Shown here: positions 576 through 63,360 of the stretch, piece after piece
How the letters are laid out: each line of letters starts with the position of its first letter
Numbering within the stretch: position 1 is the stretch's first letter
Assembly (NCBI GenBank): GCA_020137815.1
Contig: CM035352.1
Span: 5,704,001-5,768,000 of the forward strand
Length of the DNA stretch: 64,000 nt
Source of the DNA: Hormiphora californensis
Taxonomy: Eukaryota > Animalia > Ctenophora
Direction: 5' to 3'
Notes under the pieces: model-generated
Told to the model about the DNA's origin: nothing
Databases searched by the model: none
Seen by the model: the letters and a program-made list of their open reading frames with translations, nothing else
Made by a program: the position numbers and the translations under genes

Positions 576-724
576 TCGTGAGAGAGGGTTGGATTTTTTA
601 TTAACTTATTTTCCTGTAATACCGTTCTTAAATTATTTCTTTTAGTAGATCCCCTTGTTTGTATTGCAGTCCTAAAAATAATCGTGTTCCCCAGGGTACA
701 CTAACAATCTCTTCTTCTCTCAGG

Positions 725-2038
725 ATGGCCCTACGTCCACCCAGCCACTTTACTCCTCCCTCCCACCGCTCCTTGGAAACCCAAACTGATCATCTTCTCT
801 CCACCCAATGCTCTTCACAAACCCCTCTATGTTCCACTAACTGCAGCACCTCTCAGACAGAGACGCCTTCTCAAACCAGTTCCTGTCAAACAGACACCAG
901 TCCATTGACCATCTTCACAGAGACAGGAACACAGGTGGGATACAACAGAGAAACACTAAACTGTGGTACTGAGACAGAGCCTGATAAGACAGGGTTACTG
1001 GAGGAGTTAGCGAGCAAGTTGAGAGGAGAGATCGGATCATTGATCAGCAGCAAAACAAAAGAGAAGGAACCAGTTATAACTGCAGTTAACGATCAGCAAG
1101 ATGAAGTTGAGAAGTTGACGAAGATGATTGGGATTCTTGAGACAAGGTTACAATGGCAGGAAGAGGCTATTGAACTACAGGAGAAGGCACTGGGTGAGGG
1201 GAGTGGAGGAGGTAAAGTTATAGCAGCGTGGCGACACAAAGTCCTTCAGATGCTATTGAGTAAGGCTATGGAAGATATCGGGGAGGAACGGGAGGTTCTT
1301 CACCTTCAGTCTCGAGTAGGGGAGCTGGAGGGAGCCCTGGTTAGCTCCCAAAATGAGGTTCAGCTACTGAAATGTCGGGTAGGAGATATACAGGGTGCTG
1401 TTAGAATGAAGGAACATGTAATTGAGACAATGGAGGGGGAAGTTCATCGACTTCACAGGGCTGAGGAGAGATGCCGAGAATTGGAGGAGTTTGTTAAATC
1501 CACTATTGAGAGGATTGGGAACTCAGTTCAGGGGTTAGAAATGGGAAGTGAGGTTGAGGAGTTACTAGGAGGTTACGAGGACCAGATTGATTGCCTAAAC
1601 TCGAAAGTGATACTTCTACAATCAGTGATAACTGAGAAAGAGAACTTTTTCTCCTCTAAATTAGAATCCCTTCTTCACCAGATGAGTCCTACAAAACCTG
1701 CAGTTCACAGTTCAGATACCCAGACCCAACCTCCATCCCCTGGACACAACCAAGAGTGCCAAACAGAGGCCCCTGATTTGAGGGATCGTGTAAAGGACCT
1801 GGAGGGTCAGATACCCGCTTTAGTGAAGGAGAAAACAGTCCTCGCTGCTCGGTGTGCTGAGTTACAATCTGAGTGTCAGGATGTGGGAGATCGGGTCACA
1901 TTGTTACAGGATCAGATAGCCGCTATGAATGTGAGACATACTCAGGAGCTGGCTGAATTACAGAAACGGGAGAGCAAGGCAGCAATTAGGGCTAAACAAC
2001 TTGAAAGACAACTTCTGAGATTGGAACAAGGCTCATAA
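725..2038 (+). CDS. CCHCR1: Single-exon coiled-coil protein, CCHCR1 (HCR)-like
   Basis: ATG at 725 follows a pyrimidine tract + AG. N-terminal LRPPSHF, central WRHKVLQMLL...LQSRVGELE...SQNEVQLL and C-terminal KRESKAAIRAKQLERQ resemble conserved CCHCR1 segments (PPSHF; RWREKVFALM; REHAKAVVSLRQIQR). Heptad-rich throughout. Confidence 0.65.
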   Translation: MALRPPSHFTPPSHRSLETQTDHLLSTQCSSQTPLCSTNCSTSQTETPSQTSSCQTDTSPLTIFTETGTQVGYNRETLNCGTETEPDKTGLLEELASKLRGEIGSLISSKTKEKEPVITAVNDQQDEVEKLTKMIGILETRLQWQEEAIELQEKALGEGSGGGKVIAAWRHKVLQMLLSKAMEDIGEEREVLHLQSRVGELEGALVSSQNEVQLLKCRVGDIQGAVRMKEHVIETMEGEVHRLHRAEERCRELEEFVKSTIERIGNSVQGLEMGSEVEELLGGYEDQIDCLNSKVILLQSVITEKENFFSSKLESLLHQMSPTKPAVHSSDTQTQPPSPGHNQECQTEAPDLRDRVKDLEGQIPALVKEKTVLAARCAELQSECQDVGDRVTLLQDQIAAMNVRHTQELAELQKRESKAAIRAKQLERQLLRLEQGS

Positions 2039-2238: not shown

Positions 2239-4956
2239 ATGGAATCTACCTCCACCCCGTCCACCCAAGGACTCTATACAATCCTAGTTGGGATACTTCT
2301 GACAGTCCTGAGTTCCTTTATCTACTGGTACAGCAGCACCAATACTTCCTCCGATCCCGAGGAGCAGGAGAAGAAGGAGGAGGTGGTGGTGAAGAAGGGG
2401 AATGAGAAGAAACAAAGGTATTATAGCGATAACTAGACTGCTGTCTCTCTTCCACTGATATAAAGTGTGGGTCACGATGAAAATAGTGCCTCAATATATT
2501 GTGATTTCCTTCCATCTTTATTATCTCCCAGTGTCCCTGCCCCTGCGCCAAAATCCAAGAAACAACAACAGGCTGCAGCTGCTAAACGTCCCAGTCCCAC
2601 CTCCCACCCACTATTCGTGAACATGCTTCGAGGCCATACTGACACAATAAATGATATGGATATTGACCAATCAGGTTTGATACTTAGTTGTTTTATCGAG
2701 AATCTAGAAGCGTAAGATTGTATCTACTACCTTCTACTCACAACTGTCACCTTCATTCATGAAATATGAAATGACCCCTTCAGGTAAATTACTGGCCACA
2801 GTTTCTAACGATCAGACTGCCCGTGTGTGGTACATCAAGGACCTGGGCAAGGGACAGGATGTTAAGTAAGTGGTTTTGCAGTGGTTATGAGAACTCTTAT
2901 TAGAGTCACTACGTTTTCAATTCTCTTTTTACAATCCAATTAATAAAGAACGTGTTGCCTGCAGGTATACAAGAATCCCTCTGGAGACTGATGGTACATC
3001 CATTTCAATTTCACCTGATGGTAAAGCAGTAGCGGTCCTGCTACCCAATAAGAACTGTGTTGATATCCATAGATTGGGCAAGAAGCCTGGGGAAGCAGCA
3101 ACCCTTGTTCTCACAATCGATAAGGTAAGGGGGAGTCAGGGGAGAAAGAAGTCAGGGTAAATAAATAATTTTTAGGAAACTAGAGGTGGGAGGGAGGTGT
3201 AATTAAAATACTGGCCCTTTTCAGATAAAGGGTGATTTGAAGGATGTCTCTATTTCTCCCACTGGAAAGTTCATTATTGTTAGTACAGGAAAGACCCAAG
3301 TTTACGTTTACTCTCTCAAAGGTACCAAGTTCAAGATGCTCCCTGCTTTCTTACTAGCTTCCCCCATTCTCCAATAGTACTTTATAGTACCCTGACCAGA
3401 TTTCTCTGTTTACTAATTGATCAGCTATCTAATAATTCCCAGGTGAGCTCCTGCATACTATCGACACTGCTCAGATGTACAATGGTCAGATCTCTGTCAG
3501 TCCCTGTAAGGACCTCGTCGGTGCCTCTGGGTTCACCCCTCAGGTTCACTTTTGGGAGGTGAAATTCAACAAAGCTGGATCTTTCCAAGGGGTAAGTGGG
3601 TTCCGACTCCAGGAGTGCCCTCATGAGGTTCCCCCCAGTGGGACACACATGTGTGTGACTGTGCATCTTGGTGGCGGTTGTGGTTAAGGATTTGTGGAGC
3701 GCGCGGCGTTCCCCATCCAGTAACTTGGCATTGTTAGCAATGTAACGCGCACCCTTGCCGCGCCCTAGATCGAGCATCGTCACAAAATGTGTGTGACAGC
3801 TCAAACATCTGATATCCGGGAAGTGTGATGTGTAGATAAGCGGTGTGATTATATTTTCTGACCACTATCTCCCCTCTAGGTTCAAGAAGCAATGGATCTA
3901 TCGGGACACAAATCAGGAGTCTACTCATTTGCCTTTAGTGGAGATACCCGCCGTGCCGTGACAGTCTCAAAAGATGGAACTTGGAGGGTCTATAACACTG
4001 ATGGTACGGTACAATGAACCTCTATTAAATAGTTATATTCTTGAGCATCCAATCCCTGATCAGTGGTCACATACATAACACCCACATACACTCAACTAAT
4101 ATGTGTGTCCATAGTGAGCTGGCACCTGAACGAAGATCCCAAGCTGCTTGTATCGGGGGAGTATCCCGTTGACGATACCCAGGGTACGGCCCATGTTGCC
4201 ATGTCACCCGATGGTAGGATAGTTGCCATAGCAACCTCTAACAACATGAGTCTTTACAATTCGGACACTGCTGAACAAATCGATAGTCTTATCGGTATCC
4301 ACTCAGGTAGCTAGATATATAGGATTTATCTACAACAACTGTTTATGTTCAATCATCACCAAATAGATTTTCTAAACTTGAAATCCCCCTCCCTAGATTC
4401 CATAACTCGGCTGGAATTCTCGGACACTGGAAAGTATATCTTCACCTGTGGAAAAGATAAAACTGTTCGGGTATGGCTCAGTAGAGCTGGTAAGTAGTGT
4501 GCACTTTGTCTGACTGTACATCGAGCACCCCGGCCCGAAGAGGACGGTCTTATATGAGACAATGTGCACTGCAGTGTTAAATTGTGACTGCTTTTGTACA
4601 ACTGATAATTGTAATTTTATATTTTCATGTAGGTATGAAGCGAGATGTAGAGCTATGGGCTGAATCCCTTAAATCCGCGACAAACCCTTCTCACAAAGAG
4701 AGATTAAAAACACAAATAGCCGAGACAACGTAAGTACTGGGCTATTTTTTGTATATCCGTTGAACTCTCTCCGTTCATGTGTTGTGCTTCACAAGACATG
4801 AATGATGAACGGAGTTGTGACAGCATAATGATCGAGACTCTAGCTCCCTTTGTCTCTCTCTATCCCTCTTTCTGTGACAGCAACTATAATGTATGAGGTT
4901 AACAATGACACAATGATTTCAGAGCACGCCTGGCGGAGCTGGCGGTACTATGTTGA
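2239..4956 (+). CDS. TBL2: Transducin beta-like protein 2 (N-terminal TM anchor + WD40 propeller), multi-exon
   Basis: N-terminal hydrophobic helix (LYTILVGILLTVLSSFIYWY). Exons encode HPLFVNMLRGHTDTINDMD, VSPCKDLVGASGFTPQVHFWEVKF, GHKSGVYSFAFSGDTRRAVTVSKDGTWRVYNTD, NEDPKLL and C-terminal LKSATNPSHKERLKTQI. Short GT-AG introns; stop TGA at 4954-4956. Confidence 0.88.
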
Positions 4957-5504
4957 TCATTCCTGGGTTATATTATGGCAGGAGGAATGAACTCTAGTTT
5001 CTATTATTAGAGGCCGGCAGATAATTCCTTAAATCTTCATGTTTAATCATATATATTTTGTGGGTCACGTTAGATAATCGCGTTTGCATTGTTATACGTA
5101 GCGTGCTTGCACCCCGCTCTGGAGGGAATGTTTCGGAGTGGCGGGGGCTTGCAGAGGAATAGGAAAAAAGGTGTGTCTGTGTGCTATGGAGAGCATATAA
5201 TGCAACACTCACTGTCTGCCGCTCTGGTTTGAACTATCTCTTTCTCATTCAATATCTTTCTGCAGTAGAATCATCCTCAGTGCCACTCGACCACCTTGTA
5301 AAATATTGTGGCTGCATTAACCACCTGTTTTGCAGTGGGCTTACAGGGAATGTAAAGCGGTACCGGGGGTGATTATTTTCAACGGTGCTATTTTCAATTC
5401 CTCTCATGCAGTGATATCACATTTATTGGTCAACTCTCAAAATCCAATCAGTGCATAATCTCTCATTAGCATTTTGCAACGACAATTGTCTATCCTATCC
5501 TAAT

Positions 5505-8500
5505 ATGACTTATAACACCAGTTATTCCGCTGGCGGCTTCTCCGCCGGTGGTGGCGCTGGTTTCGCTGCTGGCGGTGGTGCCGGTTTTTCCGCAGGAGGC
5601 GGAGCCGGCGGATTTGCTGCAGGCGGCGGTGGCGGTGGATTTTCTGCCGGAATCTCTCTAAACATGGGAGGAGGAGGTGGTGGTGGAGCCGGAGGAGGCA
5701 GCGGCTTTACCATCATCCCCGCATCTTCCATCAACCTGGCTGAATACACAATTCTTCCTGCTAGCCAGGTCTTCGGATCTGATGGAGCTGTCCAGCCCAA
5801 GTTCCTTCCTCTTATTCCTCAGGCCATCATTCTCTTGCCTGATGGAGCTCTCGGAGCCCCAACCGGCCCCGGACTGCCCAAAAACATCGGGGACAGCCAG
5901 ATCCTGCTACCCCGTGGAACCATGCCCGGAGGTGCATCTCCTGGATCCATGGGACCCGGATCACCAACTCAACCTACCATGGTATCTCTGACTGTTGGAG
6001 GAGCTCCTGGTTATGGACCCAGTGGACCCAGTGGACCCAGTGGACCCGGCGGACCCGGTGGCCCAAGTGGACCTGGTGGACCATATGGACCAGGTGCTCC
6101 AGGAAGTCCTGGTGCTCCAGGAAGTCCCTTCGGACCATCTGGACCTAGTAGTCCCGGAGGTCTTGGTGTTGATATCGACATCAATATGGGACCCGGAGGA
6201 ATGGGACCCGGAGGAATGGGACCCGGAGGAATGGGACCTGGAGGAATGGGACCCGGAGGAATGGGACCTGGAGGAATGGGACCAGGAGGAATGGGACCCG
6301 GAGGTGCTGGCTTCTCCTTCAACGGAGTTTTCATCACTCCCGGAGGTAGTTACAGCGTGACCCTGCCCAGTGGAGCTTCCGTCATCGTGTCTGGTGCTTC
6401 CATCTCTCAGAACCCAAGCAACCCCGGAAGTGTTCTCGTCTCCTATGGAGGATCCACCCACGTTGTCTTCAGCGTCTCTCCTGCTGGTGGAGCTGCTGGA
6501 CCCAGTGGACCTGGAGGAGCTGCCGGAGGACTTGGCATCGACATCGACATTTATGGTGGTGCCGGTGGTGCCGGTGGTGCTGGTAGCCCATATGGACCCG
6601 GAGGTGCTATGGGACCTGCTGGTGGTCTTTCTGGACCTGCTGGAGGTGCTATGGGACCTGCCGGAGGTGCTGGCTTCTCCTTCAACGGAGTGTTCATCAC
6701 TCCCGGAGGTAGTTACAGCGTGACCCTGCCCAGTGGAGCTTCCGTCATCGTGTCTGGTGCTTCCATCTCTCAGAACCCAAGCAACCCCGGAAGTGTTCTC
6801 GTCTCCTATGGAGGATCCACCCACGTTGTCTTCAGCGTCTCTCCTGCTGGTGGAGCTGCTGGACCCAGTGGACCTAGTGGACCTGGAGGAGCTGCCGGAG
6901 GACTCGGCATCGACATCGACATTTATGGTGGTGCCGGTGGTGCTGGTAGCCCATATGGACCCGGAGGTGCTATGGGACCTGCTGGTGGTCTTTCTGGACC
7001 TGCTGGAGGTGCTATGGGACCTGCCGGAGGTGCTGGCTTCTCCTTCAACGGAGTGTTCATCTCTCCCGGAGGTAGTTACAGCGTGACCCTGCCCAGTGGA
7101 GCTTCCGTCATCGTGTCTGGTGCTTCCATCTCTCAGAACCCAAGCAACCCCGGAAGTGTTCTCGTCTCCTATGGAGGATCCACCCACGTTGTCTTCAGCG
7201 TCTCTCCTGCTGGTGGAGCTGCTGGACCCAGTGGACCTGGAGGAGCTGCCGGAGGACTTGGCATCGACATCGACATTTATGGTGGTGCCGGTGGTGCCGG
7301 TGGTGCTGGTAGCCCATATGGACCCGGAGGTGCTATGGGACCTGCTGGTGGTCTTTCTGGACCTGCTGGAGGTGCTATGGGACCTGCCGGAGGTGCTGGC
7401 TTCTCCTTCAACGGAGTGTTCATCTCTCCCGGAGGTAGATACAGCGTGACCCTGCCCAGTGGAGCTTCCGTCATCGTGTCTGGTGCTTCCATCTCTCAGA
7501 ACCCAAGCAACCCCGGAAGTGTTCTCGTCTCCTATGGAGGATCCACCCACGTTGTCTTCAGCGTCTCTCCTGCTGGTGGAGCTGCTGGACCCAGTGGACC
7601 TAGTGGACCTGGAGGAGCTGCCGGAGGACTCGGCATCGACATCGACATTTATGGTGGTGCCGGTGGTGCTGGTAGCCCATATGGACCCGGAGGTGCTATG
7701 GGACCTGCTGGTGGTCTTTCTGGACCTGCTGGAGGTGCTATGGGACCTGCCGGAGGTGCTGGCTTCTCCTTCAACGGAGTGTTCATCACTCCCGGAGGTA
7801 GTTACAGCGTGACCCTGCCCAGTGGAGCTTCCGTCATCGTGTCTGGTGCTTCCATCTCTCAGAACCCAAGCAACCCCGGAAGTGTTCTCGTCTCCTATGG
7901 AGGATCCACCCACGTTGTCTTCAGCGTCTCTCCTGCTGGTGGAGCTGCTGGACCCAGTGGACCTAGTGGACCTGGAGGAGCTGCCGGAGGACTTCGGCAT
8001 CGACATCGACATTTATGGTGGTGCCGGTGGTGCTGGTAGCCCATATGGACCCGGAGGTGCTATGGGACCTGCTGGTGGTCTTTCTGGACCTGCTGGAGGT
8101 GCTATGGGACCTGCCGGAGGTGCTGGCTTCTCCTTCAACGGAGTGTTCATCACTCCCGGAGGTAGTTACAGCGTGACCCTGCCCAGTGGAGCTTCCGTAA
8201 TCGTGTCTGGTGCTTCCATCTCTCAGAACCCAAGCAACCCCGGAAGTGTTCTCGTCTCCTATGGAGGATCCACCCACGTTGTCTTCAGCGTCTCTCCTGC
8301 TGGTGGAGCTGCTGGACCCAGTGGACCTGGAGGAGCTGCCGGAGGACTTGGCATCGACATCGACATTTATGGTGGTGCCGGTGGTGCCGGTGGTGCTGGT
8401 AGCCCATATGGACCCGGAGGTGCTATGGGACCTGCTGGTGGTCTTTCTGGACCTGCTGGAGGTGCTATGGGACCTGCCGGAGGTGCTGGCTTCTCCTTCA

Positions 8501-11500
8501 ACGGAGTGTTCATCACTCCCGGAGGTAGTTACAGCGTGACCCTGCCCAGTGGAGCTTCCGTCATCGTGTCTGGTGCTTCCATCTCTCAGAACCCAAGCAA
8601 CCCCGGAAGTGTTCTCGTCTCCTATGGAGGATCCACCCACGTTGTCTTCAGCGTCTCTCCTGCTGGTGGAGCTGCTGGACCCAGTGGACCTAGTGGACCT
8701 GGAGGAGCTGCCGGAGGACTTCGGCATCGACATCGACATTTATGGTGGTGCCGGTGGTGCTGGTAGCCCATATGGACCCGGAGGTGCTATGGGACCTGCT
8801 GGTGGTCTTTCTGGACCTGCTGGAGGTGCTATGGGACCTGCCGGAGGTGCTGGCTTCTCCTTCAACGGAGTGTTCATCACTCCCGGAGGTAGTTACAGCG
8901 TGACCCTGCCCAGTGGAGCTTCCGTCATCGTGTCTGGTGCTTCCATCTCTCAGAACCCAAGCAACCCCGGAAGTGTTCTCGTCTCCTATGGAGGATCCAC
9001 CCACGTTGTCTTCAGCGTCTCTCCTGCTGGTGGAGCTGCTGGACCCAGTGGACCTAGTGGAGGAGCTGCCGGAGGACTTGGCATCGACATCGACATTTAT
9101 GGTGGTGCCGGTGGTGCCGGTGGTGCTGGTAGCCCATATGGACCCGGAGGTGCTATGGGACCTGCTGGTGGTCTTTCTGGACCTGCTGGAGGTGCTATGG
9201 GACCTGCCGGAGGTGCTGGCTTCTCCTTCAACGGAGTGTTCATCACTCCCGGAGGTAGTTACAGCGTGACCCTGCCCAGTGGAGCTTCCGTCATCGTGTC
9301 TGGTGCTTCCATCTCTCAGAACCCAAGCAACCCCGGAAGTGTTCTCGTCTCCTATGGAGGATCCACCCACGTTGTCTTCAGCGTCTCTCCTGCTGGTGGA
9401 GCTGCTGGACCCAGTGGACCTAGTGGACCTGGAGGAGCTGCCGGAGGACTCGGCATCGACATCGACATTTATGGTGGTGCCGGTGGTGCTGGTAGCCCAT
9501 ATGGACCCGGAGGTGCTATGGGACCTGCTGGTGGTCTTTCTGGACCTGCTGGAGGTGCTATGGGACCTGCCGGAGGTGCTGGCTTCTCCTTCAACGGAGT
9601 GTTCATCACTCCCGGAGGTAGTTACAGCGTGACCCTGCCCAGTGGAGCTTCCGTCATCGTGTCTGGTGCTTCCATCTCTCAGAACCCAAGCAACCCCGGA
9701 AGTGTTCTCGTCTCCTATGGAGGATCCACCCACGTTGTCTTCAGCGTCTCTCCTGCTGGTGGAGCTGCTGGACCCAGTGGACCTAGTGGACCTGGAGGAG
9801 CTGCCGGAGGACTTCGGCATCGACATCGACATTTATGGTGGTGCCGGTGGTGCTGGTAGCCCATATGGACCCGGAGGTGCTATGGGACCTGCTGGTGGTC
9901 TTTCTGGACCTGCTGGAGGTGCTATGGGACCTGCCGGAGGTGCTGGCTTCTCCTTCAACGGAGTGTTCATCACTCCCGGAGGTAGTTACAGCGTGACCCT
10001 GCCCAGTGGAGCTTCCGTCATCGTGTCTGGTGCTTCCATCTCTCAGAACCCAAGCAACCCCGGAAGTGTTCTCGTCTCCTATGGAGGATCCACCCACGTT
10101 GTCTTCAGCGTCTCTCCTGCTGGTGGAGCTGCTGGACCCAGTGGACCTAGTGGACCTGGAGGAGCTGCCGGAGGACTTGGCATCGACATCGACATTTATG
10201 GTGGTGCCGGTGGTGCTGGTAGCCCATATGGACCCGGAGGTGCTATGGGACCTGCTGGTGGTCTTTCTGGACCTGCTGGAGGTGCTATGGGACCTGCCGG
10301 AGGTGCTGGCTTCTCCTTCAACGGAGTGTTCATCACTCCCGGAGGTAGTTACAGCGTGACCCTGCCCAGTGGAGCTTCCGTCATCGTGTCTGGTGCTTCC
10401 ATCTCTCAGAACCCAAGCAACCCCGGAAGTGTTCTCGTCTCCTATGGAGGATCCACCCACGTTGTCTTCAGCGTCTCTCCTGCTGGTGGAGCTGCTGGAC
10501 CCAGTGGACCTAGTGGACCTGGAGGAGCTGCCGGAGGACTTGGCATCGACATCGACATTTATGGTGGTGCCGGTGGTGCTGGTAGCCCATATGGACCCGG
10601 AGGTGCTATGGGACCTGCTGGTGGTCTTTCTGGACCTGCTGGAGGTGCTATGGGACCTGCCGGAGGTGCTGGCTTCTCCTTCAACGGAGTGTTCATCACT
10701 CCCGGAGGTAGTTACAGCGTGACCCTGCCCAGTGGAGCTTCCGTCATCGTGTCTGGTGCTTCCATCTCTCAGAACCCAAGCAACCCCGGAAGTGTTCTCG
10801 TCTCCTATGGAGGATCCACCCACGTTGTCTTCAGCGTCTCTCCTGCTGGTGGAGCTGCTGGACCCAGTGGACCTAGTGGACCTGGAGGAGCTGCCGGAGG
10901 ACTTGGCATCGACATCGACATTTATGGTGGTGCCGGTGGTGCTGGTAGCCCATATGGACCCGGAGGTGCTATGGGACCTGCTGGTGGTCTTTCTGGACCT
11001 GCTGGAGGTGCTATGGGACCTGCCGGAGGTGCTGGCTTCTCCTTCAACGGAGTGTTCATCACTCCCGGAGGTAGTTACAGCGTGACCCTGCCCAGTGGAG
11101 CTTCCGTCATCGTGTCTGGTGCTTCCATCTCTCAGAACCCAAGCAACCCCGGAAGTGTTCTCGTCTCCTATGGAGGATCCACCCACGTTGTCTTCAGCGT
11201 CTCTCCTGCTGGTGGAGCTGCTGGACCCAGTGGACCTAGTGGACCTGGAGGAGCTGCCGGAGGACTCGGCATCGACATCGACATTTATGGTGGTGCCGGT
11301 GGTGCTGGTAGCCCATATGGACCCGGAGGTGCTATGGGACCTGCTGGTGGTCTTTCTGGACCTGCTGGAGGTGCTATGGGACCTGCCGGAGGTGCTGGCT
11401 TCTCCTTCAACGGAGTGTTCATCACTCCCGGAGGTAGTTACAGCGTGACCCTGCCCAGTGGAGCTTCCGTCATCGTGTCTGGTGCTTCCATCTCTCAGAA

Positions 11501-14500
11501 CCCAAGCAACCCCGGAAGTGTTCTCGTCTCCTATGGAGGATCCACCCACGTTGTCTTCAGCGTCTCTCCTGCTGGTGGAGCTGCTGGACCCAGTGGACCT
11601 AGTGGACCTGGAGGAGCTGCCGGAGGACTTGGCATCGACATCGACATTTATGGTGGTGCCGGTGGTGCTGGTAGCCCATATGGACCCGGAGGTGCTATGG
11701 GACCTGCTGGTGGTCTTTCTGGACCTGCTGGAGGTGCTATGGGACCTGCCGGAGGTGCTGGCTTCTCCTTCAACGGAGTGTTCATCACTCCCGGAGGTAG
11801 TTACAGCGTGACCCTGCCCAGTGGAGCTTCCGTCATCGTGTCTGGTGCTTCCATCTCTCAGAACCCAAGCAACCCCGGAAGTGTTCTCGTCTCCTATGGA
11901 GGATCCACCCACGTTGTCTTCAGCGTCTCTCCTGCTGGTGGAGCTGCTGGACCCAGTGGACCTAGTGGACCTGGAGGAGCTGCCGGAGGACTTGGCATCG
12001 ACATCGACATTTATGGTGGTGCCGGTGGTGCTGGTAGCCCATATGGACCCGGAGGTGCTATGGGACCTGCTGGTGGTCTTTCTGGACCTGCTGGAGGTGC
12101 TATGGGACCTGCCGGAGGTGCTGGCTTCTCCTTCAACGGAGTGTTCATCACTCCCGGAGGTAGTTACAGCGTGACCCTGCCCAGTGGAGCTTCCGTCATC
12201 GTGTCTGGTGCTTCCATCTCTCAGAACCCAAGCAACCCCGGAAGTGTTCTCGTCTCCTATGGAGGATCCACCCACGTTGTCTTCAGCGTCTCTCCTGCTG
12301 GTGGAGCTGCTGGACCCAGTGGACCTAGTGGACCTGGAGGAGCTGCCGGAGGATTCGGCATCGACATCGACATTTATGGTGGTGCTGGTAGCCCATATGG
12401 ACCCGGAGGTGCTATGGGACCTGCTGGTGGTCTTTCTGGACCTGCTGGAGGTGCTATGGGACCTGCCGGAGGTGCTGGCTTCTCCTTCAACGGAGTGTTC
12501 ATCACTCCCGGAGGTAGTTACAGCGTGACCCTGCCCAGTGGAGCTTCCGTCATCGTGTCTGGTGCTTCCATCTCTCAGAACCCAAGCAACCCCGGAAGTG
12601 TTCTCGTCTCCTATGGAGGATCCACCCACGTTGTCTTCAGCGTCTCTCCTGCTGGTGGAGCTGCTGGACCCAGTGGACCTAGTGGACCTGGAGGAGCTGC
12701 CGGAGGACTTCGGCATCGACATCGACATTTATGGTGGTGCCGGTGGTGCTGGTAGCCCATATGGACCCGGAGGTGCTATGGGACCTGCTGGTGGTCTTTC
12801 TGGACCTGCTGGAGGTGCTATGGGACCTGCCGGAGGTGCTGGCTTCTCCTTCAACGGAGTGTTCATCACTCCCGGAGGTAGTTACAGCGTGACCCTGCCC
12901 AGTGGAGCTTCCGTCATCGTGTCTGGTGCTTCCATCTCTCAGAACCCAAGCAACCCCGGAAGTGTTCTCGTCTCCTATGGAGGATCCACCCACGTTGTCT
13001 TCAGCGTCTCTCCTGCTGGTGGAGCTGCTGGACCCAGTGGACCTGGAGGAGCTGCCGGAGGACTTGGCATCGACATCGACATTTATGGTGGTGCCGGTGG
13101 TGCTGGTAGCCCATATGGACCCGGAGGTGCTATGGGACCTGCTGGTGGTCTTTCTGGACCTGCTGGAGGTGCTATGGGACCTGCCGGAGGTGCTGGCTTC
13201 TCCTTCAACGGAGTGTTCATCACTCCCGGAGGTAGTTACAGCGTGACCCTGCCCAGTGGAGCTTCCGTCATCGTGTCTGGTGCTTCCATCTCTCAGAACC
13301 CAAGCAACCCCGGAAGTGTTCTCGTCTCCTATGGAGGATCCACCCACGTTGTCTTCAGCGTCTCTCCTGCTGGTGGAGCTGCTGGACCCAGTGGACCTGG
13401 AGGAGCTGCCGGAGGACTTGGCATCGACATCGACATTTATGGTGGTGCCGGTGGTGCTGGTAGCCCATATGGACCCGGAGGTGCTATGGGACCTGCTGGT
13501 GGTCTTTCTGGACCTGCTGGAGGTGCTATGGGACCTGCCGGAGGTGCTGGCTTCTCCTTCAACGGAGTGTTCATCACTCCCGGAGGTAGTTACAGCGTGA
13601 CCCTGCCCAGTGGAGCTTCCGTCATCGTGTCTGGTGCTTCCATCTCTCAGAACCCAAGCAACCCCGGAAGTGTTCTCGTCTCCTATGGAGGATCCACCCA
13701 CGTTGTCTTCAGCGTCTCTCCTGCTGGTGGAGCTGCTGGACCCAGTGGACCTAGTGGACCTGGAGGAGCTGCCGGAGGACTTGGCATCGACATCGACATT
13801 TATGGTGGTGCCGGTGGTGCTGGTAGCCCATATGGACCCGGAGGTGCTATGGGACCTGCTGGTGGTCTTTCTGGACCTGCTGGAGGTGCTATGGGACCTG
13901 CCGGAGGTGCTGGCTTCTCCTTCAACGGAGTGTTCATCACTCCCGGAGGTAGTTACAGCGTGACCCTGCCCAGTGGAGCTTCCGTCATCGTGTCTGGTGC
14001 TTCCATCTCTCAGAACCCAAGCAACCCCGGAAGTGTTCTCGTCTCCTATGGAGGATCCACCCACGTTGTCTTCAGCGTCTCTCCTGCTGGTGGAGCTGCT
14101 GGACCCAGTGGACCTAGTGGACCTGGAGGAGCTGCCGGAGGACTTGGCATCGACATCGACATTTATGGTGGTGCCGGTGGTGCTGGTAGCCCATATGGAC
14201 CCGGAGGTGCTATGGGACCTGCTGGTGGTCTTTCTGGACCTGCTGGAGGTGCTATGGGACCTGCCGGAGGTGCTGGCTTCTCCTTCAACGGAGTGTTCAT
14301 CACTCCCGGAGGTAGTTACAGCGTGACCCTGCCCAGTGGAGCTTCCGTCATCGTGTCTGGTGCTTCCATCTCTCAGAACCCAAGCAACCCCGGAAGTGTT
14401 CTCGTCTCCTATGGAGGATCCACCCACGTTGTCTTCAGCGTCTCTCCTGCTGGTGGAGCTGCTGGACCCAGTGGACCTAGTGGACCTGGAGGAGCTGCCG

Positions 14501-17500
14501 GAGGATTCGGCATCGACATCGACATTTATGGTGGTGCCGGTGGTGCTGGTAGCCCATATGGACCCGGAGGTGCTATGGGACCTGCTGGTGGTCTTTCTGG
14601 ACCTGCTGGAGGTGCTATGGGACCTGCCGGAGGTGCTGGCTTCTCCTTCAACGGAGTGTTCATCACTCCCGGAGGTAGTTACAGCGTGACCCTGCCCAGT
14701 GGAGCTTCCGTCATCGTGTCTGGTGCTTCCATCTCTCAGAACCCAAGCAACCCCGGAAGTGTTCTCGTCTCCTATGGAGGATCCACCCACGTTGTCTTCA
14801 GCGTCTCTCCTGCTGGTGGAGCTGCTGGACCCAGTGGACCTAGTGGACCTGGAGGAGCTGCCGGAGGACTTGGCATCGACATCGACATTTATGGTGGTGC
14901 CGGTGGTGCTGGTAGCCCATATGGACCCGGAGGTGCTATGGGACCTGCTGGTGGTCTTTCTGGACCTGCTGGAGGTGCTATGGGACCTGCCGGAGGTGCT
15001 GGCTTCTCCTTCAACGGAGTGTTCATCACTCCCGGAGGTAGTTACAGCGTGACCCTGCCCAGTGGAGCTTCCGTCATCGTGTCTGGTGCTTCCATCTCTC
15101 AGAACCCAAGCAACCCCGGAAGTGTTCTCGTCTCCTATGGAGGATCCACCCACGTTGTCTTCAGCGTCTCTCCTGCTGGTGGAGCTGCTGGACCCAGTGG
15201 ACCTAGTGGACCTGGAGGAGCTGCCGGAGGACTTCGGCATCGACATCGACATTTATGGTGGTGCCGGTGGTGCTGGTAGCCCATATGGACCCGGAGGTGC
15301 TATGGGACCTGCTGGTGGTCTTTCTGGACCTGCTGGAGGTGCTATGGGACCTGCCGGAGGTGCTGGCTTCTCCTTCAACGGAGTGTTCATCACTCCCGGA
15401 GGTAGTTACAGCGTGACCCTGCCCAGTGGAGCTTCCGTCATCGTGTCTGGTGCTTCCATCTCTCAGAACCCAAGCAACCCCGGAAGTGTTCTCGTCTCCT
15501 ATGGAGGATCCACCCACGTTGTCTTCAGCGTCTCTCCTGCTGGTGGAGCTGCTGGACCCAGTGGACCTAGTGGACCTGGAGGAGCTGCCGGAGGACTTCG
15601 GCATCGACATCGACATTTATGGTGGTGCCGGTGGTGCTGGTAGCCCATATGGACCCGGAGGTGCTATGGGACCTGCTGGTGGTCTTTCTGGACCTGCTGG
15701 AGGTGCTATGGGACCTGCCGGAGGTGCTGGCTTCTCCTTCAACGGAGTGTTCATCACTCCCGGAGGTAGTTACAGCGTGACCCTGCCCAGTGGAGCTTCC
15801 GTCATCGTGTCTGGTGCTTCCATCTCTCAGAACCCAAGCAACCCCGGAAGTGTTCTCGTCTCCTATGGAGGATCCACCCACGTTGTCTTCAGCGTCTCTC
15901 CTGCTGGTGGAGCTGCTGGACCCAGTGGACCTAGTGGACCTGGAGGAGCTGCCGGAGGATTCGGCATCGACATCGACATTTATGGTGGTGCCGGTGGTGC
16001 TGGTAGCCCATATGGACCCGGAGGTGCTATGGGACCTGCTGGTGGTCTTTCTGGACCTGCTGGAGGTGCTATGGGACCTGCCGGAGGTGCTGGCTTCTCC
16101 TTCAACGGAGTGTTCATCACTCCCGGAGGTAGTTACAGCGTGACCCTGCCCAGTGGAGCTTCCGTCATCGTGTCTGGTGCTTCATCTCTCAGAACCCAAG
16201 GCTGGACCCTTGGACCAGGGCTGGGACGCTGGGTTCGGACCTCGATTAGGTGCCGGGGGCTGTTCCTAACGAGTGTTATACTCCGGGGTTTCGCGGACCC
16301 TGCCATGGGCTTCCGATGTGTCTCCATTTCAACCCAGAACCGGACGGTCTCGTCTCTTGGGTCCACCCACTGCTCCCCCCTGTGTGGCTCTGGAATGACC
16401 AGTGCTGAGGGCTCCGGGTTGGCTCGACATGACATTTGGGGCCGGGGGCTGGTGCCATCCCGAGGCTTGGTGCTGGTGCTTCGGATGCTGAGGGTGCTGG
16501 ACCTGCCGAGGCTGGTTCCTTCCGGAGGTTCTCCTCCGGGGTGTTACAACTCCCGGGAGTTCCGTACTGTCTGGGCTTCATCTCGACACAACCCGAAGCC
16601 CCCGAGGTCCCCCCACGTTGTCTTCTCGCTTCTGCGGACGTGACCCAGTGGACCTGGGACTGGGGAGCTCGAGATGCATGACATATGGTGGTGGGCGGTA
16701 AGCAACCCGGAAGTGTTCTCGTCTCCTATGGAGGATCCACCCACGTTGTCTTCAGCGTCTCTCCTGCTGGTGGAGCTGCTGGACCCAGTGGACCTGGAGG
16801 AGCTGCCGGAGGATTCGGCATCGACATCGACATTTATGGTGGTGCCGGTGGTGCTGGTAGCCCATATGGACCCGGAGGTGCTATGGGACCTGCTGGTGGT
16901 CTTTCTGGACCTGCTGGAGGTGCTATGGGACCTGCCGGAGGTGCTGGCTTCTCCTTCAACGGAGTGTTCATCACTCCCGGAGGTAGTTACAGCGTGACCC
17001 TGCCCAGTGGAGCTTCCGTCATCGTGTCTGGTGCTTCCATCTCTCAGAACCCAAGCAACCCCGGAAGTGTTCTCGTCTCCTATGGAGGATCCACCCACGT
17101 TGTCTTCAGCGTCTCTCCTGCTGGTGGAGCTGCTGGACCCAGTGGACCTAGTGGACCTGGAGGAGCTGCCGGAGGACTTGGCATCGACATCGACATTTAT
17201 GGTGGTGCCGGTGGTGCTGGTAGCCCATATGGACCCGGAGGTGCTATGGGACCTGCTGGTGGTCTTTCTGGACCTGCTGGAGGTGCTATGGGACCTGCCG
17301 GAGGTGCTGGCTTCTCCTTCAACGGAGTGTTCATCACTCCCGGAGGTAGTTACAGCGTGACCCTGCCCAGTGGAGCTTCCGTCATCGTGTCTGGTGCTTC
17401 CATCTCTCAGAACCCAAGCAACCCCGGAAGTGTTCTCGTCTCCTATGGAGGATCCACCCACGTTGTCTTCAGCGTCTCTCCTGCTGGTGGAGCTGCTGGA

Positions 17501-18955
17501 CCCAGTGGACCTAGTGGACCTGGAGGAGCTGCCGGAGGATTCGGCATCGACATCGACATTTATGGTGGTGCCGGTGGTGCTGGTAGCCCATATGGACCCG
17601 GAGGTGCTATGGGACCTGCTGGTGGTCTTTCTGGACCTGCTGGAGGTGCTGGCTTCTCCTTCAACGGAGTGTTCATCACTCCCGGAGGTAGTTACAGCGT
17701 GACCCTGCCCAGTGGAGCTTCCGTCATCGTGTCTGGTGCTTCCATCTCTCAGAACCCAAGCAACCCTGGAAGTGTTCTCGTCTCCTATGGAGGATCCACC
17801 CACGTTGTCTTCAGCGTCTCTCCTGCTGGTGGAGCTGCTGGACCCAGTGGACCTAGTGGACCTGGAGGAGCTGCCGGAGGATTCGGCATTGACATTGACG
17901 TTTATGGTGGCATGGGACCTGGAGGAATGGGACCTGGAGGAATGGGACCCGGAAGTATGGGACCCGGAGGAATGGGACCTGGAGGAATGGGACCCGGAGG
18001 AATGGGACCCGGAGGAATGGGACCTGGAGGAATGGGACCCGGAGGAATGGGACCCGGAGGAATGGGACCCGGAAGCAGGGGACCAAGTGGTCCTAGTATT
18101 GATATTGACATCTATGCTGGGCCCTCTGGACCTTCTGGACCTGGTGGTCTTGCCAGTCCTTATGGACCTAGTGGACCTTCCGGACCTGGTGGTCTTGCCA
18201 GTCCTTATGGACCTAGTGGGCCTATGGGACCCGCTGGACCTATGGGACCTGCTGGACCTATGGGACCTGCTGGTCCATCTGGACCATCTGGACCATATGG
18301 TCCTTACTCTCCAGGATCGCCCTTCGGCTCACCTGGTTCATCCATCCCATCTGATAGCGATGGTTCAAGCTCTGATGGCGAAGCCGATGATCCATCCAAG
18401 CTGCCCTACCCTGGCTCCAACTATCTCCCTGGATTCCTGTCTCGTGCTAACCTACCCCGTGGTACCCGACATTTCCCTCTCTACGTTATGTTCAACCCTG
18501 ACGGATCTGTCAAGCCTGTGTACACTCCTCTGCGTTCTGACAAGCGGCCCATTGTTATCCTTCCCCGGGATATGATGAACCGTGCACCCAGGGCTCCCCC
18601 ATCCAACACCCCTGCCTTCACCGTGAACAACACCCCCATCATCCCTACCAAGTTCTACCAGATTAATATCAACGGTGCTACCTCTACTGTGCCTGGTCGT
18701 TACATCCGACAGAGGCGAAGCAAGGGAGGATTCTCTGTTAAGGTCGCCGGACAGCGTCGTGCCATCAGGGCCGGATACAGTCTTGTTGAGGTCGGAGCCA
18801 ATGCCGGAGGATACGCCGCTGGAGGTGCTGCTAGTGGTGGATACGCTGCTGGAGGTGCTGCTAGTGGTGGATACGCATCTGCTGGTGGATTCGGAGGAGG
18901 TTTCTCGAGTGGTGGTGCTACCGGATATGGAGGTGGCTACATGAGGAACTGTTAG
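5505..18955 (+). CDS. Giant Gly/Ser/Ala/Pro-rich repetitive silk-like/elastomeric structural protein (~4,500 aa if indels are repaired), no introns apparent
   Basis: ATG at 5505 ([12 protein letters not shown]...), then a Gly-rich head, a unique domain, (GPGGM)n, ~31 copies of a 121-aa module, (GPGGM)n again, unique C-terminal domains and stop at 18953-18955. The frame is broken only by six identical +1 events (GGA-CTTC-GGC) and one scrambled stretch (16184-16700). Confidence 0.85.
6309..17905 (+). repeat. Coding tandem array, unit ~363 bp (variants ~342/354/364/366 bp), ~31 near-identical copies plus ~1.5 corrupted copies
   Basis: Out-of-frame ORF starts recur at 6370, 6733, 7096, 7459, 7822 ... 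17007, 17370, 17712. Unit: [121 protein letters not shown]. Confidence 0.97.
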
Positions 18956-20366: not shown

Positions 20367-20803
20367 AGACATGAACTACCCGATACTTAGCCAGACATGA
20401 ACTACCCGATACTTAGCCAGACATGAACTACCCGATACTTAGTCAGACATGAACTACCCGATACTTAGCCAGACATGAACTACCCGATACTTAGCCAGAC
20501 ATGAACTACCCGATACTTAGCCAGACATGAACTACTCGATACTTAGCCAGACATGAACTACCCGATACTTAGCGAGACATGAACTACCCGATACTTAGCC
20601 AGACATGAACTACCCGATACTTAGCCAGACATGAACTACCCGATACTTAGCCAGACATGAACTACCCGATACTTAGCCAGACATGAACTACCCGATACTT
20701 AGCCAGACATGAACTACCCGATACTTAGCCAGACATGAACTACCCGATACTTAGCGAGACATGAACTACCCGATACTTAGCCAGACATGAACTACCCGAT
20801 ACT
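20367..20803. repeat. 26-bp minisatellite (AGACATGAACTACCCGATACTTAGCC), ~17 copies
   Basis: Head-to-tail near-identical units with no spacers. Confidence 0.95.
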
Positions 20804-21053
20804 TCTCCTCTTATCTAGCTTATCTTACCATCCGATGTTCCTAATAATACATAACACGGTTTAACCCTGGCACATACTTGTTGAGTAAGGACAACAACTG
20901 TCTGGTGATTATACTTATAGGTCAAGTTATCTTGTACACCAGTTATATGACCTGATTTGCAGCTCACAGCTGTATACTTGTTATGAAACTACAGTATCAT
21001 TTTACTGGCAGCATGTGTAATCCATTTAGAGAGATAGAAAAGAGAGTGAGAGA

Positions 21054-27886: not shown

Positions 27887-29359
27887 GGTAGTATGAAAGA
27901 TTAGGTCGTGCGCGCCAAATGGCGCCATATGGCGCCAAATGGCGCCATCAAATTCGCCAAATGGCGCCACGTGGCGAATAAATGGCGCCATTTGGCGCCA
28001 AAATGTGGCGAGTGCGCACTATCGCCAAATGGCGCCATTTCTGGCGCCAAATCTGGCGCCACGTGGCGCCACGCGGCGCCACGTGGCGCCAGTGGCGATC
28101 GCCATTCGCCAAATATTGGCGACTCTTGGCGGTATCGCCACGTGGCGATGGTACAAAGTCTGAAAAAAAACATGCGCAAAATTGTTATCGCCAAATGGCG
28201 CCATTTGGCGCCATTAAGTGATCAGGAGATCAAGTCGCCAAATGGCGACGTTTGGCGCCAGATGGCGACGTTTGGCGACAAATGGCGACTAACATTTGAC
28301 AAACAGTTTGCGCCATATGTCGCCAATTGGCGCCATATGGCGACATTTGGCGCCAAATGGCGATGTTCGGCGCTAAGTGGCGCCATATGGCGCCAGATGG
28401 CGACAAACATTTGACAAAAATTTGGCGCCATATGGCGACATTTGGCGCCAAATGGCGACGTTTGGCGCCAGATGGCGACGTTTGGCGACAAATGGCGACT
28501 AACATTTGACAAACAGTTTGCGCCATATGTCGCCATATGGCGACATTTGGCGCCAAATGGCGACGTTCGGCGCCAAATGGCGACGTTCGGCGCCAAGTGG
28601 CGCCAGATGGCGACAAATATTTGACAAAAATTTGGCGCCATATGGCGACATTTGGCGCCAACTGGCGACGTTTGGCGCCAAATGGCGACGTTTGGCGCCA
28701 GATGGCGACTAACATTTGACAAACAGTTTGCGCCATATGTCGCCACTTGGCACCATATGGCGACATTTGGCGCCAAATGGCGATGTTCGGCGCCAAGTGG
28801 CGCCATATGGCGACAAACGTTTTACAAAAATTTGGCGCCATATGGCGACATTTGGCGCCAAATGGCGAGGTTTGGCGCCATATGGCGACATTTGGCGCCA
28901 AATGGCGACGTTTAGCGCCAACTGGCGACATTTGGCGCCGTTCGGCGCCAATTGGCGATTTTTTCGCCAAATGGCGCCACGCGGCGCCGAGTGGCGAGCG
29001 TCATATTTTGGAAAGCATTGAAAATTTGCTATTCTTATCGCCAAATGGCGCCATTTGGCGATAAATATGTTGCGCATGTTTTTTTCAGACTTCATAGCAT
29101 CGCCACGTGGCGATACCGCCAAGAGTCGCCAACATTTGGCGAATGGCGATCGCCACTGGCGCCACGTGGCGCCACGCGGCGCCACGCGGCGCCAGATTTG
29201 GCGCCAAATGGCGCCATTTGGCGATAGTGCGCACTCGCCACATTTTGGCGCCAAATGGCGCCATTTGTTCGCCACGTGGCGCCATTTGGCGAATATGATG
29301 GCGCCATTTGGCGCCATATGGCGCCATTTGGCGCGCACGACCTAATCTTTCATACTACC
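27887..29359. mobile_element. Non-autonomous foldback DNA transposon (1473 bp), GGTA...TACC ends, 8-bp TSD, built from GGCGCC micro-repeats; Merlin-like
   Basis: TIRs GGTAGTATGAAAGATTAGGTCGTGCGCGCC / GGCGCGCACGACCTAATCTTTCATACTACC extend roughly 300 bp. TSD GTAATCAT at 27879-27886 and 29360-29367. Interior is tandem TGGCGCCA/TGGCGAC units; no transposase. Confidence 0.88.
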
Positions 29360-56832: not shown

Positions 56833-57695
56833 GTGAGCTAATAAAAATGGAGAGTTTTATGAGCTAGAAACATAGGGGAGTTGTGAGCTAGAAACATAGG
56901 GGAGTTGTGAGCTAGAAACATAGGGGAGTTTTGTGAGCTAGAAACATAGGGGAGTTGTGAGCTAGAAACATAGGGGAGTTTTGTGAGCTAATAAAACAGG
57001 GGAGTTGTGAGCTAGAAACATAGGGGAGTTTTGTGAGCTAGAAACATAGGGGAGTTTTGTGAGCTAGAAACATAAGGGAGTTGTGAGCTAATAAAACAGG
57101 GGAGTTTTGTGAGCTAGAAACATAGGGGAGTTTTGTGAGCTAGAAACATAGGGGAGTTTTGTGAGCTAGAAACATAGGGGAGTTGTGAGCTAGAAACATA
57201 GGGGAGTTTTGTGAGCTAGAAACATAAGGGAGTTGTAAGCTAGAAACATAAGGGAGTTGTGAGCTAGAAACATAAGGGAGTTGTGAGCTAGAAACATAAG
57301 GGAGTTGTGAGCTAGAAACATAGGGGAGTTGTGAGCTAATAAAACAGGGGAGTTGTGAGCTAGAAACATAGGGGAGTTTTGTGAGCTAGAAACATAAGGG
57401 AGTTTTGTGAGCTAGAAACATAAGGGAGTTGTGAGCTAGAAACATAGGGGAGTTGTGAGCTAGAAACATAAGGGAGTTGTGAGCTAGAAACATATGGGAG
57501 TTGTGAGCTACAAACATAGGGCAGTTGTGAGCTAATAAAACAGGGGAGTTGTGAGCTAGAAACATAAGGGAGTTGTGAGCTAGAAACATAGGGGAGTTGT
57601 GAGCTAGAAACAAAAGGGAGTTGTGAGCTAGAAACATAAGGGAGTTGTAAGCTAGAAGCATAAGGGAGTTGTGAGCTAGAAACATAAGGAAGTTG
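56833..57695. repeat. 24/26-bp minisatellite (GTGAGCTAGAAACATAGGGGAGTT[TT]), ~35 copies
   Basis: Head-to-tail units filling most of the gap between the GINS3 stop and the next gene's ATG. Confidence 0.95.
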
Positions 57696-62019: not shown

Positions 62020-63360
62020 CTGAAAATGAAAAAATGAAAATGAACATCACCATTTATATTAGAGTCAGTAAATGACTCTTCCCGCTCTTACACTATAAAC
62101 ATATATAATTAAATATATATCCTACAAGGCCGAGAGGCTAAAAGCATCGGCAGTTACCTAAAGCGGGTTAGCATATTTATGGAAACAGTCCTAGATAGAT
62201 AGATACAGTTCAGTTAGCTATCCAACTTGAATCACATTGTTTTTGATGTAATAATTACCGTCTGGATCATCTGTACGAACCCGTTTCAAGGTGGCCAGCA
62301 GAGCTTTTCGCTCCTTTAGTTGAGAGGGGTTAAGATCCGGTGACAGATATACGGCCGAGTGTTTTTTTGAATCTTTGAGCTGCCGTGCCTTCTTCAGCAG
62401 CGCCAAAAGGGTCGCTCTCTTCTCAAGAGATACCAATAGCGGCCTAGGGCGTTTCTCGTTTCTCTCACCAATACGTTTTATGTTAGCAACTTTCGGTTTT
62501 TCGTTCAGTTCTTCAAATAGCTCTTCCAGATTGGTTCTATCAGCATTCTCTGTTGTTTCTGGGAGCCCAAAGATTACCAAGTTCTTCTCTCGATTTTCCT
62601 GGGGTACTACTGTAGCAGGCTTAGAAGTTGGTGGCTTAGGAGGAGTTGGTAGCTTTTTCGCCACAGGGGAGGCTGCAGCATAATTTTGAGCCATGACTGT
62701 CGAGTAGGCTTTCACCTTCTGCACTGAAGTTTCCACTGAGTTCAATTGTTCTTTCTGAGCATTGATGACCGTTTGTTGTAGTTCAATGACCAAGACACGA
62801 TTTCGCTCAAGCTCTTCTTTGCACGCAGATAGTTGCTTCTCTAGTTTTTCTGCAGTGATTACGGTATTCAAATTGTTCATAGCTGCTTGAGCAAGTTTGG
62901 CACTGGAAATAAAGAGTTGAGTGGTGACATCAACAACTTGATTTGGGGTAAGGTCCTTCAGACGATCTTTGAAGAATGTCCCCATGTGATTTTCGGGTGG
63001 GTTCGAGCAGTCAGGGGTAAAAGCCCTCGCAGGTGCAAATTTGATAGAATTATAGCACTGACTAACGTTCTCGGGGGTGATACTTCTCTGTTGTTCGGGA
63101 ACAGCAACCCAATGCAGCCGTTCAACTCCCAAAACAAAGTCATCAACGGATTCAATCAGTTGTTTTATCTTAGGGTTATCGCCCTCATACGGTAAGCGTA
63201 GAATCTTATCCAATCGTTTGTCTTCGTACATTAGCTTCATCATCAGTGTTTCACTTTTCTGCCCTTTGGGGCGGTCACATCACCATATCTACCTGCTCAA
63301 ATTAATTTGTTTAAAGTAGTGTTGAAAAGTTTGAGTGAGGAGACACCAGACTCGAGAGCG
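62020..63360 (-). mobile_element. LINE (CR1/L2/Jockey-group) ORF1-like element with no ORF2; ORF 63243-62218
   Basis: Coiled coil + REKNLVIFGLPE...RIG...RPRPLLV...LLKKARQLK...VYLSPDL..QLKERKAL (typical ORF1 RRM/CTD). About 180 bp of 3' sequence then a (TTCATT)-like tail. Boundaries approximate. Confidence 0.75.

Follow-up and report, generated by a model that had tools for sequence, protein, structure and literature searches.

The stretch of DNA analysed here comprises 64,000 nucleotides from the ctenophore Hormiphora californensis (assembly GCA_020137815.1, contig CM035352.1, positions 5,704,001 to 5,768,000, forward strand) and is referred to below, at its full length, as the window. Its most conspicuous feature is a very large repeat gene on the + strand, the bead gene, which begins with an ATG at position 5505 and ends with a stop codon at 18953-18955. 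The product of this gene is a protein of approximately 4,500 residues in which about 33 near-identical beads alternate with Gly/Pro-rich linkers. An original prediction, made from the letters alone, had described this region as a giant silk-like fibre protein encoded by a single coding unit of about 13.4 kb. The start and stop of that unit stand, but as assembled the gene is spread over eight + strand open reading frames (ORFs) and not one open frame.

The protein opens with a Gly/Ala/Phe-rich tail without a signal-peptide-like stretch (5505-5702), which has the same start point in the relatives P0006 and P0007. This tail is followed by a domain of about 74 amino acids (aa), here called the N-terminal cap (5703-5924). 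It is related to the C-terminal domain, in the first half of the latter, and also to N-termini of non-glycine paralogues. A GPS/GP-rich linker carrying the first VDIDI spacer (5925-6185) and a GPGGM tandem of 7.9 copies (6186-6304; Tandem Repeats Finder) lead into modules 1-27 (6309-16091), each consisting of an uncharged 57-aa bead, predicted to be a beta-barrel, and a linker of about 64 aa that is built of Gly, Pro, Ala and Ser and contains one IDIDI spacer; anchors, repeats and a structural model with a predicted local distance difference test (pLDDT) of 96.9 delimit these modules. A corrupted stretch with many deletions of 1-3 bases and relics of two to three modules (16092-16945) separates them from the last three modules (16946-17911), which were placed by anchors and repeat period. 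A second GPGGM tandem, of 11.5 copies by Tandem Repeats Finder, lies at 17912-18084, and the prediction that such blocks flank the array on both sides was correct. The C-terminal part begins with a GPS/GPA linker holding the last IDIDI spacer and then a Ser/Asp-rich acidic patch that relatives keep (18085-18397), continues with a C-terminal cap bearing an FNPDG motif (18398-18610) and a diverged version of the bead domain that is strongly basic (18611-18793), and closes with a Gly-rich tail that ends in the sole Cys of the protein, followed by the stop (18794-18955). The cap and the basic copy together have an isoelectric point (pI) of 11.2, with 21 Lys/Arg against 6 Asp/Glu. All eight C-termini compared (8/8) have a Cys among their last 7 residues, and the relative L002 ends in ...CSN.

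The array is strongly homogenised. Tandem Repeats Finder returned a period of 363 bp with 27.3 copies at 98% matches for 6298-16200, and 3.4 copies at 95% matches for a second segment at 16700-17910, while 25 of 30 intact bead cores are identical at the DNA level. Exact module anchors number 31, all intact, in agreement with the approximately 31 modules predicted, but the total is more probably about 33, because the corrupted stretch aligns to two or three more. Module 1 has four Tyr and two Asp and lacks Lys, Arg, Glu, Cys and Trp altogether, as had been stated, but its Gly count is 37 of 121 residues and not 36; module 4 has one Ser-to-Arg change. The core, the GPS and GGA linkers and the GIDIDIY spacer likewise match their earlier description.

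Six +1 frameshifts interrupt the array (at 7992, 8719, 9812, 12708, 15232 and 15596, spanning 7992-15599), each reading CTTC and each located at the Leu/Phe codon that precedes the spacer. Among 29 full-length units this codon is CTT in 15, CTC in 4, TTC in 4 and CTTC in 6, CTTC being the outcome of merging the variants CTT, CTC and TTC, and the length changes elsewhere among units are all multiples of 3. The relative P0007, of which P0005 and P0006 are fragments within the same cluster, is an open protein of 2,868 aa that has 21 modules and shares both its N-terminal and its C-terminal domain with the bead gene. Since all six shifts sit at one polymorphic codon and equal its merged variants, and since P0007 is one open frame with the same ends, the frame breaks are most likely assembly faults. 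The six shifts are probable consensus errors, and 16092-16945, which aligns to two to three modules with dozens of 1-3-base deletions, is probably an unpolished read segment. The CTTC insertion was not listed for the DNA run X2 or for three RNA runs, whose contigs show presence only. The depth of X2 was 1718 on the module contig and 50.5 on the single-copy flank, a ratio of 34 that, depth not being equal to copy number, agrees only roughly with about 33 modules. A broken gene, or a coding-looking satellite without a protein product, would also be expected to show frameshifts and a corrupted stretch, and the RNA-labelled run X22, which has the same species label, contained 0.00 of the words, although this is no proof of absence. 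We regard this explanation as highly improbable in view of the position of the shifts at a codon whose three real variants merge to give exactly CTTC, the open frame of P0007 (with P0005 and P0006 as pieces of it), and the synonymous bias and RNA cover described next.

The window core and the core of the paralogue L001 differ by 13 synonymous and 9 non-synonymous codon changes, and 18 of the 31 base changes fall at third positions, a pattern that points to selection acting on the + frame of the bead gene. The 3' stretch of the gene is present wholly or partly in 20 of the 22 runs listed, 10 of which are recorded as RNA (4 studies), with shares of this stretch between 0.26 and 0.57 in those 10. 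These RNA sources are plankton metatranscriptomes kept as contigs, from which neither strand nor tissue is readable. A detailed comparison covered positions 3900-6680 only, and included X2 and three RNA runs from two studies. All 30 bins were covered in X2; in all three RNA runs 3900-5480 was uncovered, cover lay only from 5481 onward and the module was covered, and in run X14 the single-copy N-terminus (5596-6128) was covered too. The bead gene is transcribed and is a real + strand gene. The assignment of the coding unit to the + strand is supported by the synonymous bias relative to L001 and by relatives that conserve the + product.

The bead itself was predicted by AlphaFold2, using a 13-row alignment, to be all-beta apart from a single short helical turn (pLDDT 96.9; predicted template modelling score 0.81); the five bead models had pLDDT values of 95.9-96.9, and two modules modelled without an alignment gave a pLDDT of 36. 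The buried hydrophobic positions of the family are retained in the window core. At the level of structure prediction, then, the folded beta bead proposed earlier is borne out, and it appears to be a small SH3/Tudor-like beta-barrel. Foldseek found nothing at E<=0.001, either among structures, where the top rows were Hfq, a biotin-ligase chain and Tudor domains with template modelling scores of 0.43-0.54, or among viral structures. With VIA-align, the best Z among 48,161 chains was 4.8 (the Tudor domains of TDRD3 and ARID4B; root-mean-square deviation 2.0-2.6 Å over 44-52 residues), and the list consisted mostly of Tudor, PWWP, BAH, KOW, myosin and integrase barrels. Known barrels of this kind (the Tudor domains of TDRD3, ARID4B, SMN and PHF1; Hfq; the myosin N-terminal SH3-like domain; the integrase C-terminal domain) match 44-52 of 59 residues at Z 4.3-4.8, but there is no sequence match, none reaches Z>=5 or E<=0.001, and an extra N-terminal hairpin is often unaligned. 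The models show a likeness of common small-barrel arrangement and not of homology.

Tudor domains hold an aromatic cage for methyl-Arg or methyl-Lys, and multi-Tudor germ-granule proteins form condensates. The bead protein might by analogy be a multivalent scaffold whose Tudor-like barrels, carried on disordered linkers, bind methylated peptides, RNA or the cytoskeleton and form a condensate. The nearest folds (Tudor, at Z 4.8, and Hfq), the very basic end domain, and paralogues with 9-12 divergent barrels and many Ser/Thr-Pro sites could all be accommodated by such a scaffold. However, only one aromatic is near-invariant over 43 family copies (a Tyr, conserved in 38 of 39 rows), and no cage for reading methyl marks is evident from this; no Pfam Tudor match was obtained, and identical uncharged beads are more apt for a material than for the recognition of varied ligands. 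We consider a scaffold of this type unlikely.

To find relatives of the bead, 1.84 billion representatives were searched with a C-terminal domain profile, and 11 matched. Five of these (P0016-P0020) are C-terminal pieces of the same type as the C-terminus of the bead protein. In four others (P0021, P0022, P0023 and P0025), non-glycine proteins that are for the most part rich in Ser-Pro, a domain of about 58 aa occurs 2, 9, 12 and 9 times, respectively (>=20 bits); P0023 is the Pleurobrachia bachei protein sb|3460687| and holds an apparently duplicated segment. These four resemble the bead protein in their barrel family and in having no signal-like leader, and P0023 and P0025 share its N-terminal cap, but they have Ser/Pro-rich linkers, no IDIDI spacer and no homogenised array. 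Their linkers contain 4-7% Gly, and their barrels are divergent; these multi-barrel proteins likely represent the ancestral form of the family. The remaining two matches, P0024 and P0026 (record name Pontibacter), were dropped as unrelated repeats, with no domain at 20 bits when a clean profile was used.

A profile of 46 domain copies that included no repeat cores gave the window core 52 bits (shuffle maximum 12; 0/2000) and the three repeat cores 45-52 bits (0/2000 shuffles each). When the profile was drawn from the four non-glycine proteins only, the repeat cores scored 41-47 bits, with the window core at 47. Because these clean profiles score the cores far above shuffles, the window bead, its basic C-terminal copy and the paralogue domains form one family. 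Judged by sequence, the bead belongs to an undescribed family of domains of about 58 aa whose only named members and neighbours are from ctenophores. The kinship of the core and the C-terminal copy is clear because the wider family profile was used and not pairwise comparison, which was weak for the window (21/2000 shuffles) and negative for P0007 (1086/2000); a profile of three cores against the C-terminal copies was significant for L002 only. Pfam contained no family at E<=0.1 for P0001, P0002 or P0003 (parts of the gene), none for P0007, none at E<=10 for the cap alone or the cores, and no Tudor-clan family at E<=1 for the paralogues. Sequence searches of the PDB gave only rows at E>=0.45, and a profile search gave three unrelated rows (E 1.3-2.3). 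In the ESM Atlas the module scored at best 0.85 (phage Gly-rich clusters) and the C-terminal domain 0.77, neither of which reaches lead level. The profile searches of the terminal domains and core that the original prediction had proposed have in this way recovered a ctenophore domain family and matched no characterised one. We found no published account of this family or of P. bachei sb|3460687| in a search whose scope left most subscription papers outside.

The cap is also a recurrent element. A profile of the N-terminal cap matched four C-terminal regions with scores reached by 0-1 of 500 shuffles each, and with the N-terminal 120 aa of the non-glycine paralogues it scored 16 bits for P0023 and P0025 (0/2000 shuffles) but was negative for P0021 and P0022. 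An internal or C-terminal cap is present in the non-glycine paralogues. Taken together, the cap and barrel of the C-terminus of the bead protein are 49-92% identical to those of 8 relatives of the Gly-rich type and 23-29% identical to those of P0022 and P0023. In a tree of the cap-plus-barrel regions 3 of 9 forks were supported. Pattern scans of metagenomes found no relatives in 358 matches and then two in 317, L001 (1-1054) and L002 (2-1486), which carry the same bead on different, GGX-rich linkers; L002 closes with two basic barrel copies. From their identical core we infer that L001 and L002 are one gene, whose tail is long and of the GPSGPAGPY type. A second module variant, found in X2 (depth 1411) and in RNA runs X10 and X14, matches L001 at all 10 listed substitutions, and a second giant Gly-rich paralogue is therefore likely to be carried and transcribed by the host species. 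One IDIDI spacer per module is the rule in the bead gene, in P0007 (22) and in L001/L002, and the four non-glycine paralogues have 0. The remainder of the linker turns over among the Gly-rich members while the IDIDI strand stays.

The original prediction likened the linkers to those of spider flagelliform silk (Flag). Each linker holds 9 GGX motifs. GPGGX occurs only 2 times per window module, in non-adjacent positions (longest run within a module 1), and runs of 8 and 11 are confined to the two ends of the gene. The flagelliform-type description applies to these terminal tandems, but not to the interior of the modules or to the linkers of relatives. In the available part of PMC534800, Flag is described as having at least 43 contiguous GPGXX per repeat unit, and as combining a very large messenger RNA (mRNA), homogenised repeats, GPGGX and GGX motifs, a charged spacer and non-repetitive ends. 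The bead gene is alike in being a very large homogenised repeat gene with GPGGX and GGX, a charged spacer and non-repetitive ends, which is a resemblance only. It differs from Flag in having no spidroin N-terminal domain (P0001 has no Pfam family at E<=0.1, and the cap none at E<=10), no spidroin C-terminal domain, its C-terminus being a cap and a bead copy, and no signal peptide by hydropathy and single upstream exons. In addition, half of each bead module is predicted to be a folded barrel, the gene has a single exon where Flag has 13, and the two belong to different phyla. The earlier statement that a spidroin terminal domain is missing agrees with our finding no Pfam family for either end, and by these sequence features the bead protein is not a spidroin.

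Spidroins carry a secretion signal peptide. In the first 40 aa of the bead protein the best 9-residue hydropathy is 1.04, and among 42 possible single in-frame upstream exons (4736-5440) the best value is 1.54, with no hydrophobic leader. By hydropathy, and not by SignalP, a leader is absent in the window gene, P0007, P0019, P0021, P0022, P0023 and P0025. Because neither the window, nor P0007, nor the P. bachei paralogue has a leader, the bead protein is likely cytoplasmic, in line with the predicted lack of a signal peptide and the intracellular fibre suggested from it. A secreted or exocytosed silk-like fibre, or a glue component of colloblasts or tentilla, would account for the silk-like size, homogenised repeats, GPGGM blocks, GGX motifs, acidic spacer, four Tyr per module and terminal Cys, and the tentilla of Pleurobrachia are called thin extensible filaments in the accessible portion of PMC13091417. 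The same three leaderless proteins speak against secretion, as does the occurrence of the rest of the domain family in Ser-Pro-rich proteins of cytoplasmic look, and we think such a secreted product improbable. The glue version is disfavoured further because colloblast candidate genes, in the part of PMC6278862 available, show an enrichment of signal peptides but none of low-complexity regions; colloblast proteins resemble no known adhesive, according to the same paper. Tentacle genes have been lost in the tentacle-less Beroe, according to the part of PMC11184263 at hand.

A cytoplasmic chain of this design is closer to titin. Like titin/connectin and connectitin, the bead protein would string many small folded beta domains into a giant chain with low-complexity, Pro-containing springs, the fold being predicted and the elasticity judged from composition; it is also likely intracellular, as titin is, with a contour of about a micrometre. 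It is unlike titin in its predicted SH3-like barrels, which are not immunoglobulin (Ig) or fibronectin type III domains, in giving no kinase, RhoGEF, Ig or fibronectin type III match in Pfam, and in the one-to-one alternation of near-identical beads with Gly-rich linkers. On these sequence comparisons it is not a titin, and its design is akin to both titin and silk. Ctenophores have no connectitin, as stated in the available part of PMC12198301. The linkers of the window modules have a 2P+G composition of 0.70, and the flanks reach 0.84-0.94 (0.94 for aa 170-268). These values lie above the Pro/Gly threshold of 0.60 for elastomeric disorder, below which amyloid-like packing is possible according to the accessible part of PMC7061623, and in composition they support the elastic linkers of the original prediction. 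We propose that the bead protein may be an intracellular extensible structural filament, a titin-like spring made from unrelated parts, and assign this reading a probability of about 0.5.

A possible mechanism can be outlined with contour estimates based on textbook lengths and thirty-four modules. The linkers would act as disordered entropic springs with a contour of about 0.83 micrometre, coiled to about 30 nm at rest, and the beads would hold a further 0.7 micrometre or so, released upon unfolding. The two caps, the basic end barrel (pI 11.2) and the terminal Cys could serve in anchoring or joining chains. The acidic, conserved IDIDI strands and the uncharged beads might allow chains to pack side by side, or the IDIDI strand might instead pair with the basic end barrel; packing or basic-end pairing is a likely role for this strand, which is kept once per module while the linkers turn over. 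Such a protein probably originated from a Ser-Pro-rich multi-barrel protein of the P0022/P0023/P0025 type, in which one barrel was amplified and Gly-rich linkers were gained, the module copies then being homogenised within each gene. Candidate sites are the muscle of the tentacles and the colloblasts, in the latter as part of an internal skeleton; the original prediction had named the colloblast spiral filament or the tentilla, with Tyr that may allow di-Tyr or DOPA cross-links. Colloblasts have a spiral thread, for which we found no confirmation in the papers searched. The part of preprint 10.1101/2020.06.27.175059 available to us contains nothing on a spiral filament. It is a tentative suggestion that ctenophores independently built a giant spring in this manner, from an ancestral multi-barrel cytoplasmic protein to a family of micrometre-long chains, with Tudor/SH3-like beads on silk-like elastic linkers, in stretching tentacles, tentilla or the colloblast thread.

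Several points weigh against the filament proposed here. The linkers of relatives have 2P+G values at or just under 0.60 (0.59 in P0007 and 0.57 in L001) and are without GPGGX (longest runs 0-1), and elasticity may for these reasons not be a conserved property. The fold match is weak, with 0 of 48,161 chains at Z>=5. One minus-strand frame is likewise open throughout the array, and the contigs do not give strand; the + strand product is favoured over it because relatives conserve the + product. The cellular location is deduced from hydropathy and single upstream exons, and the conserved terminal Cys would suit disulphide linking in an oxidising, extracellular setting. Extensibility and the location in cell and tissue are all read from sequence. 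The borderline linkers of relatives would, moreover, suit a bulk intracellular hardening or packing material, in which beta-edges and IDIDI strands form a stiff cross-linked mass such as ciliary caps or teeth, granule cores or cortex. Cross-links in such a mass would be made possible by the beads, being hydrophobic and uncharged, by Tyr and by the Cys at the end, and at least two paralogues of roughly 30 copies each are present in RNA. The window linkers and flanks are, however, well above the threshold (0.70-0.94), and a well-folded barrel of the predicted kind would bury its beta-strands, which makes a stiff mass doubtful as an explanation.

If the bead protein is an extensible filament, it is of interest beyond this locus. 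The ctenophores, which branched off very early among animals, have muscles and tentacles that can be stretched a great deal, but no titin-family spring has been reported in them (PMC12198301). Beside titin and silk, the bead gene is a concrete candidate for a third way of making a protein elastic. It would also be an example of a small barrel family, without a Pfam or PDB match, that was amplified to a homogenised array. Repeat genes of this kind break in assemblies, and gene catalogues would miss them. For protein materials, a folded bead that is uncharged and sits on an elastomer linker would be a new building block, and the 57-aa bead and the 121-aa module should be easily expressed.

The bead gene lies among other, more conventional genes. 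The ORF at 632-2038 (+) is a single-exon coiled-coil gene whose product presumably resembles CCHCR1. Out of 7,991 scored candidates, 3 clusters matched it, and one of these includes Bolinopsis microptera XP_063676926.1. The protein shares 32-33% identity with a Bolinopsis microptera protein and, as a range, with four relatives, which share 50-93% among themselves. Together with the P. bachei member of the bead family, this marks the host as a ctenophore distant from Bolinopsis, probably a cydippid, in keeping with the ctenophore host considered in the original prediction. Directly upstream of the bead gene is a multi-exon WD40 gene (2238 to about 4900, +), which we take to be TBL2-like, with an N-terminal hydrophobic stretch and a WD40 match at E 7.7e-08 in one exon. 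It starts 200 bp past the preceding stop and is tightly packed and co-oriented with the bead gene. The intronic segment 4458-4643 reaches a depth of 3,700-6,500 in X2, against about 50, and is a high-copy dispersed repeat. On the other side, the exons of a coiled-coil gene on the minus strand (19120 to about 19700) end about 160 bp from the bead gene stop. Further along the window, an ORF rich in Arg, Asp, Ser and Gly (48390-49199, +; RDRSGD-type repeats) has no Pfam match and is possibly an exon of a multi-exon gene at about 45145-47281, and a 353-aa coiled-coil ORF (62218-63279, -), also without a Pfam match, has motifs that we assume recall the ORF1 protein of a long interspersed nuclear element. 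An inverted repeat at 59859-61423 has 765-bp arms that are 99% complementary and 35 nt apart, and may be a foldback element or an assembly artefact. A nested satellite at 27900-29340 has periods of 10, 20, 105 and 210 bp and a near-palindromic TGGCGCCA motif, and minisatellites occur at 20367-20804 (26 bp x 16.8) and 56860-57695 (24 bp x 34).

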